A DNA stretch of 35,017 nt, taken from assembly GCA_964345915.1 (NCBI GenBank), contig CAYFTD010000172.1, positions 1-35,017 on the forward strand, read 5' to 3'. The position numbers and the translations under genes were made by a program. Below, piece after piece: positions 7,674-34,766 of the stretch. The notes beneath the pieces are model-generated. The model saw only the letters and a list, made by a program, of their open reading frames with translations, was not told the DNA's origin and did not search any database. Each line of letters starts with the position of its first letter. Positions within the stretch are counted from its first letter, which is position 1. The DNA comes from an uncultured archaeon. Its GTDB lineage: Archaea; Asgardarchaeota; Thorarchaeia; Thorarchaeales; Thorarchaeaceae.

Positions 7674-7784
7674 GCTCCGGTAGATGTGCTATGAGAATCA
7701 TCATGGTATTGCCGTGTGTAGTCCGGCCCAGCATGGGGGACTCTCGATCCCCCGACCCGGGTTCAAATCCCGGCCGGAGCACCA
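7674..7784 (+). tRNA. tRNA-Glu: tRNA-Glu (anticodon CUC) with a ~33-nt intron in the D-arm region and genomically encoded CCA
   Basis: The 5' acceptor GCTCCGG (7674-7680) pairs with CCGGAGC (7774-7780). T-arm is CCGGG-TTCAAAT-CCCGG. Anticodon stem GGGGA/TCCCC has loop CTCTCGA (CTC at 7743-7745). The D-arm GTGTAGTCCGGCCCAGCAT resumes at ~7716, leaving 7683-7715 as extra sequence. A73 plus CCA occupy 7781-7784. Confidence 0.75.
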
Positions 7785-18540: not shown

Positions 18541-19608
18541 TTGTTACCTGAGGAGAGGGGTCTCTTTAATTGTTGGCCTCGTATCTACATTCTTGTGAAG
18601 TCCTTAAGCTCTCAGCCTATTGAGGGTTACTTCGTTGTGACTGATGAGGCTCTTGTATTTGAAGTCAAGGGAGTTGTGCATCCTCGCGATCGATTGATTG
18701 CATATCTGAGGTATGTTCCTGATGACAAAGGAAATCGCCAGTCAAGAAATGGCAGAAGATTCAACAAGATATACAGGCTGAAGGATCGCGAACAGTACCT
18801 TCGTGACAGATACCCTGAGTTTCTGTGGTCAGATAGGAAACGTGGACGAGTGTTCCAGACTGTTCCAGTTGATTGTGTCGATTATGTCCTGAGTCCCATT
18901 GATGGACTGCGCCAACTTAGGGACCTTGGAGCACATCTGACTCATCTCGAAGAAGCGTCCTGTGTGCTTGCTCAGGCGTTTGTTGAACAGGCTTGCATCG
19001 ACTGGTCTGACCTTGGTCTCACTGGTTCTCAGCTCGCCGGTCTTAGTACCGCTGAATCTGATATCGACCTTGTTGTATATGGTTCAGACCCAGCCAGAAG
19101 ACTTCACTCTGTCTTGAAACACCACCTTGATCAATTCCCGGATGTCAGCCGATACAGAGATGAACGGCTTGAGAAACATGTGAAGTTTAGGTGGAAAGCC
19201 CTTGGAAGATGGAAGTCTGTATTACAAGTAATAGAATCTCAGAAGGCTTTCCAAGGCGTGTTTAGCTCCATTGATTTCTTTGTTAGAGCTGTGAAACTGC
19301 CAAGAGAGATTGGCCATCGCTATGAGGACCTCAGTATCAAAAGCGAGGGTATTCGAGAAACGAGGTGTTCGGTGATAGATGATTCTGACTCGATTTTCAC
19401 TCCGTGTATCTATCTTGTGCAATGTGATGAGTTGCCAGACATCAAAAGACTGGTCAGCTATCGTGGTCGTTTTGCAGAACATACCTCCAGAGGTTCTTTC
19501 GTCAGAGCAAGAGGTCGACTCGAAGTAGTTGACAACGATAGAAGTGGTGAAAGCTATCAACAGCTTGTTCTTGGAGAGAGTCCGGAAGATTATCTTCTAC
19601 CAATCTGA
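18541..19608 (+). CDS. Nucleotidyltransferase-domain protein (Pol-beta superfamily)
   Basis: GLTGSQLAGLSTAESDIDLVVYGSD is the G[SG]...DxD minimal NTase signature. The rest is unassigned. The start is uncertain (TTG 18541; a GTG ~18595 is possible). Confidence 0.6.
   Translation: MLPEERGLFNCWPRIYILVKSLSSQPIEGYFVVTDEALVFEVKGVVHPRDRLIAYLRYVPDDKGNRQSRNGRRFNKIYRLKDREQYLRDRYPEFLWSDRKRGRVFQTVPVDCVDYVLSPIDGLRQLRDLGAHLTHLEEASCVLAQAFVEQACIDWSDLGLTGSQLAGLSTAESDIDLVVYGSDPARRLHSVLKHHLDQFPDVSRYRDERLEKHVKFRWKALGRWKSVLQVIESQKAFQGVFSSIDFFVRAVKLPREIGHRYEDLSIKSEGIRETRCSVIDDSDSIFTPCIYLVQCDELPDIKRLVSYRGRFAEHTSRGSFVRARGRLEVVDNDRSGESYQQLVLGESPEDYLLPI
19218..19234. repeat. Bipartite GTAWTAC motif (TGTATTACAAGTAATAG)
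   Basis: Two inverted heptamers in 9-bp register, inside the NTase gene. Confidence 0.6.
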
Positions 19609-19661
19609 ATCAGATCTTGTTGACAGATTCACGGTATTTACACGGTTTCACAGTCAACCTC

Positions 19662-20018
19662 TGTGAATGGCGCCCTTTTTGTGAATAGTCTACAGAAAAG
19701 GGACCTCAAATCAGTCCGTGAGGGCTGATGGGACCCCATAGAGGTCCGTAGTCCTGTGAATGAAGCCACCCCTTGGTTTCCAGTGGAATGGGATAACTAG
19801 AGATATGAAATGCTTGTTGAGTCATTCACAAAGTACATAGTTTGGTGAACAAGAGAAGAACTGGAGAATGGGCCAATTTCCTGATTTAGAGGCACCATAG
19901 GCCTTCTTTTGTGTTTTAAGGGATTCACAAGCTGCCAGCACAGTTATAGCATAACGGACGTGTTCTGAATGCGTACAGACGCATTATGTAGCCGTTACCA
20001 TGGTATTGGCAATTCACA
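19662..20018. repeat. Mirrored heptamer array: TGTGAAT x3 (19662, 19680, 19755), then ATTCACA x3 (19824, 19923, 20012)
   Basis: Six exact 7-mers in one 496-bp spacer. All forward copies are left of the ORB-like box at 19768-19788 and all reverse copies are right of it. Near-copies are TGTGAAC at 20054, GGTGAAC at 19844 and ATTCACg at 19627. Confidence 0.7.
19768..19788 (-). promoter_or_regulatory. ORB-type origin recognition box (copy A)
   Basis: The reverse complement TTCCACTGGAAACCAAGGGGT combines a TCCA-N2-GGAAA dyad with a G-string, the form of archaeal Orc1/Cdc6 ORB elements. It is 20/21 identical to copy B. Confidence 0.55.
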
Positions 20019-20104
20019 TACTCACACTTATTTGAGAAACGAATTCAGATACTTGTGAACACGGCTTCATGCACTGAGCCAAGTAGAAGTAAACAAGGAA
20101 CTGG

Positions 20105-20743
20105 GTGAATGATTTGAAGACTGAAGAGAGAACGGGGTATTTGTACGAGTTCACATACAACTCCGGCCCGGGCCTACGAGAAATCTTTCAGTGCAAATAC
20201 GTCAAGCCTGATGAGGCATTGACAAGATTCCGAAGAATTCTTTCTCTCACAGAGGAGCCATTTGATTTCAGAATCGTAGTACGAGATGAGTCCAAGAGAG
20301 AAGAGTCTAGCTTCCAAGTCGAAGGTGGCAGCATAAAGGAGATGTTCGAGAAATTCAAGGTCTTCTTGGAAGCGAGTACCGGTCATTCCTTTGCCCCGGA
20401 GAAAGAAGAGGCAGTTGATGCTGGGATTGAAGAAATCAGCTATGAGTCAATGAGTAGTTATGAGAAGATGCACATTGTAATATATGCATCCTTCAAGCAC
20501 GGCAAGTTCTCTTCCTTGGATGTTGCCGAGATCTATCAAGCAACATTTAATGAAGACCTACCAAAGAGTACTGCTTCTACGTATCTTGCCCGAATGTGGA
20601 ATGATGGAAAGGGCCATCTTGAAAGACATGGGAATCGTTCGGGCTATACGTATCGACTCAAGACTGAGATCTCGGAAGTCCAGAAAGAAGCTGAGAGAGC
20701 CGAGGGAATTCTTGCTTCTATCCAGCTTCACGTAGGCAAGTAG
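20105..20743 (+). CDS. Hypothetical protein with a C-terminal winged-helix DNA-binding domain
   Basis: 212-aa ORF (GTG 20105; an in-frame TTG at 20114 follows an SD-like GGGTGA). The C-terminal LDVAEIYQATFNEDLPKSTASTYLARMWNDGKGHLERHGNRSGYTYRLK has an HTH-plus-wing pattern. The N-terminal half is unassigned. Confidence 0.6.
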   Translation: MNDLKTEERTGYLYEFTYNSGPGLREIFQCKYVKPDEALTRFRRILSLTEEPFDFRIVVRDESKREESSFQVEGGSIKEMFEKFKVFLEASTGHSFAPEKEEAVDAGIEEISYESMSSYEKMHIVIYASFKHGKFSSLDVAEIYQATFNEDLPKSTASTYLARMWNDGKGHLERHGNRSGYTYRLKTEISEVQKEAERAEGILASIQLHVGK

Positions 20744-23513: not shown

Positions 23514-23525
23514 GAACATGTGTTC
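23514..23525. promoter_or_regulatory. GAACAYGYGTTC box 1 (GAACATGTGTTC)
   Basis: Near-palindromic 12-mer followed by CAGTAATTGG, so GTTCCAGTAA resembles a mini-ORB. It is one of three related 12-mers in the 23.5-24.1 kb spacer. Confidence 0.4.
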
Positions 23526-23844
23526 CAGTAATTGGTTGTCAGAATTGTCGTCGTACTTTCTCTATCTCTATGATTGTAAGCGGGCTCGACAGATCAATGC
23601 GCGTAGAGTGTCTTTCACCAAAGAGCTCCATGGTTATGTCTACTCTTGGAAGACAAGAAGTGGGATTCGCCAAAAGAAGAAACCAGGGTTGATTGACCAA
23701 TGTGAAGGTGCTCAGGCGGTTGCTGATTCTGCAATCCTAGTCCCTGGAGAGTTCAAGCCGGTCTTTGATCAGTTCTTCTTGTCTTACGTGGATATCCTAG
23801 TTCTGAAAGTCTACGAGGTAATTGGTGAGGTGCTGTGGTAGTTA

Positions 23845-23856
23845 GAACACGTGTTC
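23845..23856. promoter_or_regulatory. GAACAYGYGTTC box 2 (perfect palindrome GAACACGTGTTC)
   Basis: Perfect 12-bp palindrome 12 nt left of ORB copy B. Confidence 0.45.
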
Positions 23857-23868
23857 CAACACCCATGG

Positions 23869-23889
23869 ACCCCTTGGTTTCCAGTAGAA
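23869..23889 (-). promoter_or_regulatory. ORB-type origin recognition box (copy B)
   Basis: The reverse complement is TTCTACTGGAAACCAAGGGGT. It directly abuts the AT-rich stretch and is inverted relative to copy C. Confidence 0.6.
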
Positions 23890-24010
23890 AGTCAATTGAG
23901 TTATAATGCGATTAGAAATCAGAAAATATAAATAGGTGTTTATGAAGCTGTAGTATATCTCCATTTTAATTACTTATTATATAACTCGCTGAAAAAACTC
24001 CATAGATCAT
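23890..24010. other. AT-rich candidate duplex-unwinding element
   Basis: About 120 bp that is visibly far more AT-rich than its surroundings (aatcagaaaatataaataggtgtttatg...ccattttaattacttattatataac), bracketed by inverted ORB copies B and C. Confidence 0.55.
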
Positions 24011-24031
24011 CTCCACTGGAAATGAAGGGGT
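24011..24031 (+). promoter_or_regulatory. ORB-type origin recognition box (copy C)
   Basis: CTCCACTGGAAATGAAGGGGT on the + strand: same dyad plus G-string, facing copy B across the AT-rich stretch. Confidence 0.6.
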
Positions 24032-24070
24032 GTTGTGCCATAATATCTGAGTATGACTGGGACATTACTC

Positions 24071-24082
24071 GAACACGCGTTC
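24071..24082. promoter_or_regulatory. GAACAYGYGTTC box 3 (GAACACGCGTTC)
   Basis: Third copy of the 12-mer, 39 nt right of ORB copy C. Confidence 0.4.
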
Positions 24083-31263: not shown

Positions 31264-32238
31264 CTAGCGCACCTCTCTAAGCAATTCAGCATATGCTTCT
31301 GATACTAGTTTGGCAGTTTCTCTGTCCACTTCTGGATCTCCGTTGCGTCTGAAACCCTCTGCGGCCACCTGTTGACATCCTCTTGCCAACATCCGGATGT
31401 CACGTGGGTTCCCCTTGGCCGCTTCATTGATGACCTCAATTGCAGCATCATCGAATGGGTAGATCTCAAAGCTACCAGGGTCAAAGCTGTCTATGCGTCC
31501 TTGAGCATAGTAGATTCTTCTCCCGATGAACTCCTTTGCTTTCTGATTATCAAACGGTGGGACATCCAAAGGCTCAGTCCTGTCTGCAATCTGTGGTAAA
31601 AACGAAAGCATGGCATTCCAGTAGATTGCGGTGCCAGACATTATCAAAGTGACAATCGGTTCATCGAGCACGTCCGGATAATCGGCTTTCATTTCTTGAG
31701 TTGGAAGATCAGCCAGATAACGCAGCTTGTGGAATGCCGTTTCCTGATTGTCTGCGACATCCTCAAGGAACAGTGCAGTGCGACAGTTCTCTTCGATATA
31801 CCTTCTCACAGATTCCTGAGCGACAGTCTCTATGATTTGACTGGACTCCCATGACCTTCGATACTTTATCCTCAAAGAGTCGGCAATGGCAGCCGACATC
31901 TGTTTCTCATAGAGTCCTGTCATGCCAACGTAACCAGTCACGAATTTGTTTCCTTTGCGATCAGCTAAGGTCGGCAGGTCTCTGAGAGCAAGCAACATCA
32001 GCGTACTCTTCCCAGATCCCACTGGGCCTCTAAGGAAGATATGCCGTTCATTAGTGAGAATCAGATCCACAAGGTGATCCAGGAATTCCGGCCATTCAAT
32101 GTAGAGTCGTGAGTCCGGCATCTTGTAACCACGAAAGGGAGAGAACCGAGCACCAATCCGCTCTTCCCAAGCCCGCAAAACTTCCTTGCGAGTGTTGAAG
32201 TGGCGGATCAACGCACTCTCATGAATCGCTATTGTCAT
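31264..32238 (-). CDS. AAA+ ATPase, Orc1/Cdc6-like (or ExeA/TniB-like AAA_22) module without a winged-helix domain
   Basis: Walker A FLRGPVGSGKSTL, Walker B ALFLEDVAD, sensor-1-like LIMSGT, PPF..QKAKEFIGRRI and a lid with GNPRDIRMLARGC (compare GDAR..L.LL of Cdc6). The protein ends ~40 aa after the lid. Confidence 0.7.
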   Translation of the reverse strand: MTIAIHESALIRHFNTRKEVLRAWEERIGARFSPFRGYKMPDSRLYIEWPEFLDHLVDLILTNERHIFLRGPVGSGKSTLMLLALRDLPTLADRKGNKFVTGYVGMTGLYEKQMSAAIADSLRIKYRRSWESSQIIETVAQESVRRYIEENCRTALFLEDVADNQETAFHKLRYLADLPTQEMKADYPDVLDEPIVTLIMSGTAIYWNAMLSFLPQIADRTEPLDVPPFDNQKAKEFIGRRIYYAQGRIDSFDPGSFEIYPFDDAAIEVINEAAKGNPRDIRMLARGCQQVAAEGFRRNGDPEVDRETAKLVSEAYAELLREVR

Positions 32239-33938: not shown

Positions 33939-34766
33939 TCAAGACTGAACGACCTTGATGTCAAGGACAGAATGCCGAATGCTAGGCGCATACCATTTGA
34001 TGCCGCGTATGGAGATGTCTGAGATGAAGCCCCTACTAGAACAAATGTCTTCAACATCTCGTATCAACTTGTCCAATTCCTTGTCAGGCAAAGCAATATG
34101 CATGTGAATCATCCCGCCTTCGGGCACTAACGCTTCCAATGCATGAGGAAGAAAATGATGCGTATCATGCAGATATCCCATGACGACCCTATTCACACCA
34201 TGAATGGGATGAACCACTCGACAATCACCATGAATGGCTTCAACCAAGTCATCAAGATCATTCAGTCGAATGTTGGTAACGAGGAACTTGTATGCTTCCG
34301 GATTCAACTCAATCGCCTTGACTCTTACTTGCCTATTCTTCGCCATTGGTAAAGCAAATTGACCGACACAAGCAAACATGTCGAGAACACACTCTCCAGA
34401 CTGGACTATGGATGCCATGCGTTCCCTCTCTCCTCTATTGCCACCAGAGAAAGTGATGCGTGTTGGATCAAGTCTGAACTTGACTCCGTTCTCAACGTGT
34501 GTTGTGACTGTGTCACTATCACCGGCTACCAGAGTGTAATCTGGTATCCGCATGACTCCAGACGTTGCACCGGTACGCACTGCAACCGAATCGATTCTTC
34601 CGTCATACTTGAGAGTGGCCTCTCCGAGCAAGGGCAAATATGGGTGCAGACCGAAATCAACATGTAGTAGGGCAACATGTCCTACGAGATGATATCCGCT
34701 AGGGAGAGGTATGCCTGAGGGGACTTGGTCTTTGAGGCTAGTTCTAAGGAACTCTCTGTACTTCAT
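33939..34766 (-). CDS. Trm5/Taw2 (Met-10+) family tRNA modification enzyme
   Basis: GHVALLHV, SAM site VLDMFACVGQFALPMA, AIELNPEAYKFLVTNIRLN and HGDCR. The Trm5 NLP motif position reads MGYL, which I associate with the Taw2/TYW2 branch (memory-based). Confidence 0.8.
   Translation of the reverse strand: MKYREFLRTSLKDQVPSGIPLPSGYHLVGHVALLHVDFGLHPYLPLLGEATLKYDGRIDSVAVRTGATSGVMRIPDYTLVAGDSDTVTTHVENGVKFRLDPTRITFSGGNRGERERMASIVQSGECVLDMFACVGQFALPMAKNRQVRVKAIELNPEAYKFLVTNIRLNDLDDLVEAIHGDCRVVHPIHGVNRVVMGYLHDTHHFLPHALEALVPEGGMIHMHIALPDKELDKLIRDVEDICSSRGFISDISIRGIKWYAPSIRHSVLDIKVVQS

Follow-up and report, generated by a model that had tools for sequence, protein, structure and literature searches.

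In archaea, origin recognition boxes (ORBs) are found in replication origins and also overlap orc1 promoters. The origins themselves are recognised by an architecture in which a DNA unwinding element (DUE) lies between two ORBs, and this ORB-DUE-ORB arrangement provides the sequence criteria for archaeal origins (reviewed in PMC4010727 and dissected in PMC12141716). In functional Sulfolobales origins, the short ucm motif is located inside the DUE, and UBP, the small protein dedicated to it, binds hundreds of sites (PMC12141716). An Orc1/Cdc6 paralogue, Orc1-2 of Saccharolobus islandicus, is reported to act as a transcription regulator (PMC12490963), and the crenarchaeal-specific, Cdt1-related protein WhiP, which carries tandem winged helices, is encoded beside oriC3 of Sulfolobus (PMC3607249). 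Here, we describe a 496-bp spacer (19609-20104) between two plus-strand genes on a chromosome segment of 35,017 bp from the Thorarchaeota (Asgard archaea), referred to below as the window. The spacer precedes the gene of a 212-aa winged helix-turn-helix (wHTH) protein. The components of the locus (ORB, winged-helix repressor and operator array) are of known kinds; what is new is a lone ORB embedded in a rigid array of short TGTGAA half-sites upstream of a conserved regulator, and the conservation of this arrangement from Asgard archaea to Halobacteriota. In the searchable literature, neither the protein family nor the TGTGAA array was found described, and the same holds for origins of Asgard archaea.

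The spacer contains TGTGAAT on the plus strand at 19662, 19680 and 19755 and its reverse complement ATTCACA at 19824, 19923 and 20012, exactly as a first-pass annotation of this DNA had listed them. These six copies are two thirds of the nine in the window, although the spacer makes up 1.4% of its length (6/9 in 496 of 35,017 bp; binomial estimate, P ~6e-10). The annotation had also raised the question of whether the heptamer is simply frequent; since the window total of nine matches the 8.6 copies predicted by shuffles, TGTGAAT is concentrated in the spacer and is not a common word. The same enrichment was found in the spacer at 37 of 40 related loci. Two of the three copies outside the spacer (34103-34109, plus strand; 34191-34197, minus strand) stand in opposite orientations 88 bp apart inside a TYW2-like gene (33939-34766), and this pair is probably due to chance.

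For comparison, a set of 22-24 Thorarchaeota genomes was used, together with 16 syntenic loci taken from species-representative genomes, the complete chromosome CP070658.1 among them. Conservation was assessed in an alignment of 22 distinct spacers (A3; window 19612-20121 and 21 other loci, with the flanking protein down to 70% identity), to which the following statements refer. The platform occurs in one copy per genome, and 23 genome contigs, each of Thorarchaeota type, contain the exact 24-nt pattern TGTGAATGGCGCCnTTTnTGTGAA, with a single occurrence per genome. Fixed positions are held by the ORB, some ten TGTGAA half-sites and a 23-mer, ATTCACATACTCACACTTATTTG, all of them invariant or nearly so; the high-information blocks that stay in place are TTCACA (19647-19652), the 24-nt block (19662-19685), TGTGAAT (19755-19761), the ORB, TTCACA (19825-19830), GTGAA (19845-19849), the 23-mer (20012-20034) and TGTGAA (20054-20059). 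In every genome, 349-352 bp separate TGTGAATGGCGCC in the 24-nt block from ATTCACA.ACTCACAC in the 23-mer, and the alignment has only 9 gapped columns though the DNA between the conserved blocks diverges freely. Exceptions within the blocks are few: the half-site at 19755 carries a single base substitution in one genome (TGTGATT, locus L025), and the 23-mer shows one substitution in two genomes and another in one. The half-sites are 6-7 bp long, occur in both orientations and are separated by irregular intervals of 16-168 bp.

Two features of the array as originally annotated did not survive this comparison. First, the array had been described as mirror-symmetric about the ORB, with forward copies to the left and reverse copies to the right. 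The conserved TTCACA at 19647 is a reverse site to the left, the conserved GTGAA at 19845 and TGTGAA at 20054 are forward sites to the right, the copy at 19923 is restricted to the closest relatives, and the distances from site to ORB are unequal. Since conserved sites of the "wrong" orientation stand on both sides of the ORB, the symmetry is a partial coincidence. Second, the promoter-like sequence GCCCTTTTTGTGAATA (19672-19687) found no support and is part of the invariant block TGTGAATGGCGCCnTTTnTGTGAA, in which two half-sites stand in direct orientation at a distance of 18 bp, together with a GGCGCC palindrome and a T-tract that is a possible terminator of the upstream gene; the sigma-70 promoter scan was set aside, the host being archaeal.

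The ORB in the spacer (copy A, 19768-19788, ACCCCTTGGTTTCCAGTGGAA) is of the full origin type. As first reported, it is identical at 20 of 21 positions to copy B (23869-23889), which we confirm as a difference of one base. Its dyad TTTCCAGTGGAA (19777-19788) has the TTCCAnTGGAA core and varies only at its centre, and its polar string is ACCCC (19768-19772). The element has the same polarity as ORB B and matches ORB C in reverse. ORB B (plus) and ORB C (minus) are located about 4.1 kb downstream, 141-143 bp apart, and the three-ORB arrangement with its 4.1-kb distance is kept in most of the Thorarchaeota loci that extend that far. Judged by sequence criteria, the region 23845-24082 around ORBs B and C is probably the chromosomal oriC, with a canonical ORB-DUE-ORB architecture. 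The two palindromes that bracket it are conserved in 14 syntenic Thorarchaeota loci and are candidate sites for a further origin factor. Directly upstream of ORB B lies a conserved 107-aa open reading frame (ORF; 23518-23841) with codon-like conservation visible in its alignment. Pfam, NCBIfam and PDB gave no match to it, and the palindrome occurs a third time, as GAACATGTGTTC (23514-23525), overlapping the start of this ORF.

Compared with this probable oriC and with the described origins (PMC4010727, PMC12141716), ORB A shares the TTCCAnTGGAA dyad and the polar C/G-string, and is nearly identical to the ORBs that flank the AT-rich segment at 23.87-24.03 kb, but it stands alone, upstream of a gene for a regulator. 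No inverted partner was found for it in the spacer; the only inverted ORB pair of the window is that at 23869/24010. The spacer has 44% GC with a 100-bp minimum of 37%, whereas the ORB B-C interval has 27% GC with a minimum of 23% and is the only 100-bp segment of the window at or below 30% GC, so that the spacer lacks an AT-rich DUE. With a single ORB and no DUE, the spacer is not a canonical replication origin. The GC skew of the window tracks gene orientation, peaks near 30 kb and is uninformative on the origin. Pfam and NCBIfam searches found no Orc1/Cdc6 gene in the window, and thus the ORB-DUE-ORB origin is not adjacent to its initiator gene here. A 324-aa ORF with an AAA_22 domain (31264-32238) was considered as Orc1/Cdc6 and rejected by both databases. 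The locus resembles the Orc1-2 system (PMC12490963) in that, judged from sequence, an initiator-type site lies in a promoter region, so that an Orc1/Cdc6 protein would be expected to act on transcription; there the site is a short promoter motif, whereas here it is a full origin-type ORB and the target is a wHTH gene. With ucm/UBP (PMC12141716), the likeness is a short non-ORB motif beside ORBs, presumably recognised here by a protein as well; motif, protein fold and lineage differ, and the cluster here occurs once per genome.

The conservation is one of DNA sequence and not of RNA structure. The annotation had proposed a structured non-coding RNA (ncRNA) of up to about 400 nt and named four stem-loops. 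All four exist and appear in the single-sequence minimum free energy fold (z = -2.4 on the plus strand and -1.6 on the minus strand against shuffles), but they are not conserved, with 46-69% of cells paired across the 22 genomes, and they break in about half of these; the stem at 19884-19918 is not conserved among the 22 spacers either. Run on 15 and on 22 spacers, RNAalifold paired mainly invariant words that complement each other; the covariation term was -0.2 kcal/mol, and only 6 of 47 pairs showed any compensatory change. The structure conservation index was 0-0.30 in 100-column windows on both strands, and an exhaustive search of stacked column pairs (at least 85% canonical) gave no truly covarying helix of 4 bp or more. 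The covariance-model scan suggested in the annotation gave no relevant Rfam match in the spacer at the gathering threshold or at E values up to 10. On neither strand does a reading frame stay open across the genomes, and the spacer holds no conserved ORF. The spacer is therefore not an RNA gene, and because the RNA-structure and coding tests are negative, what is conserved is the primary sequence of the duplex DNA and the spacing within it.

The module is not limited to Thorarchaeota. A profile search found 432 loci of homologues across Halobacteriota, and in Methanocellales, Methanoperedens and, in part, Mnemosynella/Methanonatronarchaeales the gene follows a spacer of 415-500 bp with the same order of blocks (Table 1; alignments A8, Methanoperedens, 16 loci including L116, and A9, Methanocellales). 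In Candidatus Mnemosynella and Methanonatronarchaeales, the gene-free spacers are 415-430 bp long and rich in TTCACA/TGTGAA, with ORB-like elements in Methanonatronarchaeales. At 78 of the 432 loci, the TGTGAA/TTCACA density was 4.6 per kb in the upstream 500 bp and 1.1 per kb elsewhere. Upstream of the Methanocellales genes, TGTGAA is the second most enriched hexamer (28-fold) after the overlapping variant GTGAAC (29-fold). Individual elements recur as well: the TTCACA/TGTGAA inverted pair, which in both Methanocellales and Mnemosynella stands at the spacer's distal end, TGTGAAT before the ORB in Methanoperedens, and, in Methanocellales, the order ORB, TTCACAA, GTGAAT seen at 19824-19850 and AAATAAGGCATCATA at the place equivalent to the AATAAG block. 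The 23-mer corresponds to a doublet, ATTCACATG(C/T)(T/C)GTTCACAA, which lies downstream of TATA in the relatives; clear TATA boxes stand 20-25 nt before the TTCACA doublet in Methanocellales, Methanoperedens and Mnemosynella. When the consensus spacers of Thorarchaeota and Methanoperedens were aligned globally, only the ORB aligned convincingly, and the homology of the spacers across phyla thus rests on block order, not on bases. Since the genes flanking the module differ between lineages, the spacer belongs to the wHTH gene and not to a chromosomal position, and spacer and gene form one co-inherited module across distant archaeal lineages. The Methanoperedens leader (16 loci, A8 columns ~385-470) has features of its own, GGAGACATCGGAGGGGAAATCCGGATG, a covarying hairpin GCTGTCCGCC...GGCGGACAGC, T6 and GAGG before the start codon; the whole looks like an attenuator, a translational control element or a short upstream ORF, and it is absent from Thorarchaeota.

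The 212-aa protein is recorded as hypothetical in public databases, where its homologues carry the name Candidatus Thorarchaeota. It has no Pfam or NCBIfam match, and neither its sequence nor its profile found anything significant in PDB, Pfam or NCBIfam. Relatives over the full length (70-97% identical) occur almost exclusively in Thorarchaeota. More distant ones, about 140-190 aa long, are related to the C-terminal half; some of them touch MarR and PadR, and two (P0128 and P0130) score 28.1 and 22.8 bits against a Penicillinase_R (BlaI/MecI) cut-off of 22.6. A first AlphaFold model from a shallow alignment reached a pLDDT of 54, gave meaningless Foldseek hits and was discarded; a second model (AF2), built from an alignment with the distant relatives, reached 76.7 overall and about 87-93 in the C-terminal domain (helices 118-129, 137-148 and 154-166, strands 172-177 and 180-185). 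In this model, an N-terminal (beta-beta-alpha)x2 domain is followed by a single winged helix of three helices and a beta-hairpin wing (residues ~113-185) and by a long terminal helix. Foldseek matched the C-terminal part to PadR, RosR, LmrR, MarR, BlaI and STIV F93 (probability 0.99-1.0, E ~0.02-0.1), with TM(target) of 0.5-0.6 to PadR, RosR, LmrR, MarR and BlaI at E values of at least 0.02. The predicted C-terminal domain is thus a PadR/RosR/MarR-like winged helix, in line with the winged-helix assignment made at first. Its recognition helix, S-T-x-S-T-Y-L-x-R, is invariant throughout the family. The N-terminal unit of beta-hairpin and helix occurs in one to three copies before the same winged helix in other members (P0149, P0188, P0195, P0214), with a consensus like xVxIEIxxxxGxxxSxxFEGxxxxE...L and no structural match.

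The annotation had suggested, as one possibility, a WhiP/Cdt1-like or plasmid Rep-like role for the protein, and neither comparison carried far. The likeness to both is a winged-helix gene beside a cluster of presumed sites that includes an ORB. WhiP has tandem winged helices (PMC3607249), as do Rep proteins, whereas here one winged helix follows a (beta-beta-alpha)x2 domain, and matches to the C-terminal winged helix of Cdt1 (E 0.05-0.11) were no better than those to PadR and MarR. Rep-iteron systems use tandem direct repeats of about 17-22 bp, regularly spaced beside a rep gene on mobile replicons; the half-sites here are 6-7 bp long and run both ways, the spacer has no DUE, and searches of plasmids, phages and IMG/VR found no relatives of the protein. 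The origin-associated "oap" genes of haloarchaea were also considered and are unrelated, the name referring to small GTPase or OLE-RNA proteins. The locus is also like the autoregulated dimeric repressors of the PadR, RosR, MarR and BlaI families, with which it shares the C-terminal fold and terminal helix, inverted half-sites and sites at the presumed transcription start of the protein's own gene. It differs from them in the extra N-terminal repeat domain, the lack of a Pfam match, about ten fixed sites over 450 bp and the embedded ORB.

Table 1. Features of the spacer, the probable oriC and the corresponding blocks in other archaea
Feature	Position	Strand	Remarks
355-aa ORF, weak nucleotidyltransferase domain	18541-19608	+	Upstream neighbour of the spacer
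Weak half-site ATTCACG (CGTGAAT on minus strand)	19627-19633	-	In most Thorarchaeota (A1, A3)
Inverted pair TTTCACA-N9-TGTGAAT	19646-19668		Half-sites 19647-19652 and 19662-19667; nearly invariant in 22 genomes
24-nt block TGTGAATGGCGCCnTTTnTGTGAA	19662-19685	+	Invariant columns, 22 aligned genomes
TGTGAAT half-site	19755-19761	+	6 bp upstream of ORB; all 22 genomes
ORB copy A, C-string and dyad TTTCCAGTGGAA	19766-19789	+	Varies only at dyad centre
Conserved block AGAGATATGAAAT	19799-19811		Adjoins ORB; conservation line, 22 genomes
Half-site pair ATTCACAAAG-N-(T/G)GTGAA(T/C)	19824-19850		Conserved ATA between half-sites; 22 genomes
AATAAG / CATAA / T-rich block, here TTTAGAGGCACCATAGGCCTTCTTTTGTGTTTT	19884-19918	+	Terminator-like score; A3
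ATTCACA copy	19923-19929	-	Outside conserved core; closest relatives only
Phased TAT/TA/TAT steps (19985-19987, 19996-19997, 20004-20006)	19983-20007	+	Invariant columns in A3; candidate TATA-like core-promoter zone
23-mer ATTCACATACTCACACTTATTTG, with half-site S8 and TCACAC	20012-20034	+	21/23 positions invariant; putative operator
TGTGAA(C/T) half-site in putative leader	20054-20060	+	40-41 bp past TTCACA start of 23-mer; all genomes
212-aa wHTH protein gene	20105-20743	+	Presumed binder of TGTGAA boxes
Palindrome GAACACGTGTTC	23845-23856		Left bracket of probable oriC (23845-24082)
ORB B	23869-23891	+	Probable oriC
27%-GC stretch	23893-24008		Probable oriC, between ORB B and C
ORB C	24010-24032	-	Probable oriC
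Palindrome GAACACGCGTTC	24071-24082		Right bracket of probable oriC
Block 1, distal half-site			TTCAC/TGTGAAT pair in Methanocellales, single TGTGAAT in Methanoperedens
Block 2, ORB			Canonical ACCCCTTTGTTTCCACTGGAAA in several Methanoperedens; ORB or ORB-like in Methanocellales and Methanonatronarchaeales
Block 3, TTCACAA..GTGAAT			A8, A9
Block 4, AAATAAG..CATAA			A8, A9
Block 5, second degenerate ORB-like dyad			Abuts clear TATA box; A8, A9
Block 6, ATTCACATG..TTCACAA doublet			20-25 nt downstream of TATA; A8, A9
Block 7, leader, then start codon			A8, A9

From these observations, the spacer is probably, though by no means certainly, a control region of about 400 bp acting as double-stranded DNA upstream of the wHTH gene, with a leader of some 90 nt after it. 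If the relatives are taken as a guide, the invariant TAT/TA/TAT steps would be a TATA-like core promoter (19985-20006), transcription would start near 20012, and the 23-mer would be an operator at or just past the start. The earlier proposal of a long regulated 5' leader may accordingly stand for at most the last ~90 nt and not for the rest, the promoter being placed by homology just upstream of 20012. In the mechanism that we propose, Orc1/Cdc6 would occupy the single ORB (19766-19789), and the wHTH protein, as dimers or higher oligomers, would occupy the ~10 TGTGAA/TTCACA half-sites, including the doublet at the presumed transcription start (20012-20034) and the one in the leader (20054-20060). 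The resulting nucleoprotein complex of fixed geometry would set the expression of the wHTH gene, which would thereby be under autoregulation and tied to the initiator's state. That the wHTH protein binds the TGTGAA half-sites is likewise our reading of the sequence, and it is supported by the co-inheritance of spacer and gene, by the invariant recognition helix and by a PadR/RosR-like dimer architecture that fits TTCACA-N9-TGTGAA.

Several points weigh against this reading or suggest that it is incomplete. First, the TATA-like zone of Thorarchaeota is assigned by homology only. Second, the half-site spacings (N9, N13 and N36, besides isolated sites) are at odds with a single, simple dimer operator, and a simple operator model leaves the fixed geometry of about 350 bp unexplained. 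Ordinary autoregulated promoters seldom require some 400 bp of upstream sites at rigid distances, and for this reason the spacer likely has an additional function; the rigid 350-bp spacing together with an origin-grade ORB suggests more than simple autorepression. Third, the link between protein and motif is not tight, because relatives in Methanothrix and ANME-2 keep the same recognition helix and are not enriched upstream in TGTGAA, showing instead other words such as TGTGAT and GATCAC. Finally, because in Thorarchaeota only 4.1 kb separate the module from the probable oriC, and because ORB A so closely resembles ORB B, a role in replication control is possible.

Such a role is the strongest of the alternatives, though we consider it unlikely. 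Here the spacer would be an auxiliary part of oriC or a second, weak origin, in which ORB A would recruit Orc1/Cdc6 and the wHTH protein on the TGTGAA array would serve as an origin-specific accessory or initiator factor, comparable in function to WhiP at Sulfolobus oriC3 or to UBP at the ucm and possibly acting by looping to ORBs B and C or by sequestering the initiator. The near-identity and shared polarity of ORBs A and B, the conserved distance between the three ORBs, a rigid spacing that suggests a higher-order complex, and the recurrence of ORB or ORB-like elements in the module of other phyla all fit this proposal, and there are precedents in dedicated proteins acting on non-ORB origin motifs (PMC12141716) and in a winged-helix initiator gene beside an origin (PMC3607249). 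It is opposed by the single ORB without an inverted partner, by the missing DUE and by the one winged helix of the protein compared with the tandem pair of WhiP (PMC3607249). In addition, in Methanoperedens no other ORB was found within 3 kb on either side of the module, and in further lineages it carries at most ORB-like elements; as the neighbours also differ, the element follows the gene, not an origin. The annotation's related idea, that initiators bind here a second time and that the wHTH protein has its iterons in the spacer, is retained as far as the ORB and a conserved half-site array linked to the wHTH gene are concerned, but the origin criteria fail and the irregular half-sites are not iterons.

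It is quite improbable that the spacer, close to the origin as it is, acts like a centromere or anchors the nucleoid, with the adjacent protein bound to it in the manner of parS/ParB or the archaeal SegB sites. Short sites clustered in both orientations and with rigid spacing beside the gene of a DNA-binding protein, at one locus per genome near the probable oriC, are what such a locus would show, but no gene for a ParA/SegA-type ATPase adjoins the wHTH gene here or in relatives, the distal sites of the relatives flank the TATA box and the proximal ones lie at the gene start, as for an operator, and the proximity to the origin is seen in Thorarchaeota only. Least probable of all is an element acting in RNA, with most of the spacer transcribed as an unstructured or protein-scaffold ncRNA or a very long leader and UGUGAA/UUCACA working at the RNA level, for instance through long-range pairing or as sites for a protein: the mutual complementarity of forward and reverse heptamers, which RNAalifold pairs, the plus strand's somewhat better fold than shuffles, the T-tracts (19675-19679, 19906-19918) with a terminator-like hairpin, and the genuinely covarying hairpin with T6 just before the Methanoperedens start codon are outweighed by the tests described above, by three identical stems that would promote misfolding and by a TATA box that lies downstream of most of the array in the relatives.

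One further observation concerns another part of the window. An Rfam tRNA match at 7716-7773 (plus strand; 30.7 bits against a threshold of 29, model positions 10-63), not called by ARAGORN, may represent a fragment of a tRNA or else an archaeal tRNA that is split or contains an intron.

In conclusion, we identified a lone ORB within a rigidly spaced TGTGAA array that is inherited together with a wHTH gene. Asgard archaea are the closest prokaryotic relatives of eukaryotes, and to the best of our knowledge there has been next to no study of where their replication starts or how this is controlled. The locus offers three testable objects, namely a probable oriC, a lone ORB 4.1 kb away, and a strongly conserved wHTH family whose gene comes with an ORB-plus-TGTGAA platform. 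Since the module is also present in Methanoperedens, Methanocellales and other Halobacteriota, biochemistry and even genetics are feasible outside the hard-to-grow Asgards. A bolder proposal, which we regard as doubtful, is that the module is a replication-coupled switch of Asgard and euryarchaeal lineages, in which Orc1/Cdc6 at the lone ORB would gate expression of the wHTH gene and the regulator, assembled on the TGTGAA array that in Thorarchaeota lies beside oriC, would feed back on origin firing or on cell-cycle genes; if true, archaea would have an ORC-linked regulator of the cell cycle, or an accessory factor of the origin, that has so far gone unrecognised. If Orc1/Cdc6 binds the ORB, the locus would be a widely conserved case in which an initiator is wired into the transcription of a specific regulator, and if it does not, the locus would still be a clear case of a large, rigidly spaced archaeal cis-regulatory region.

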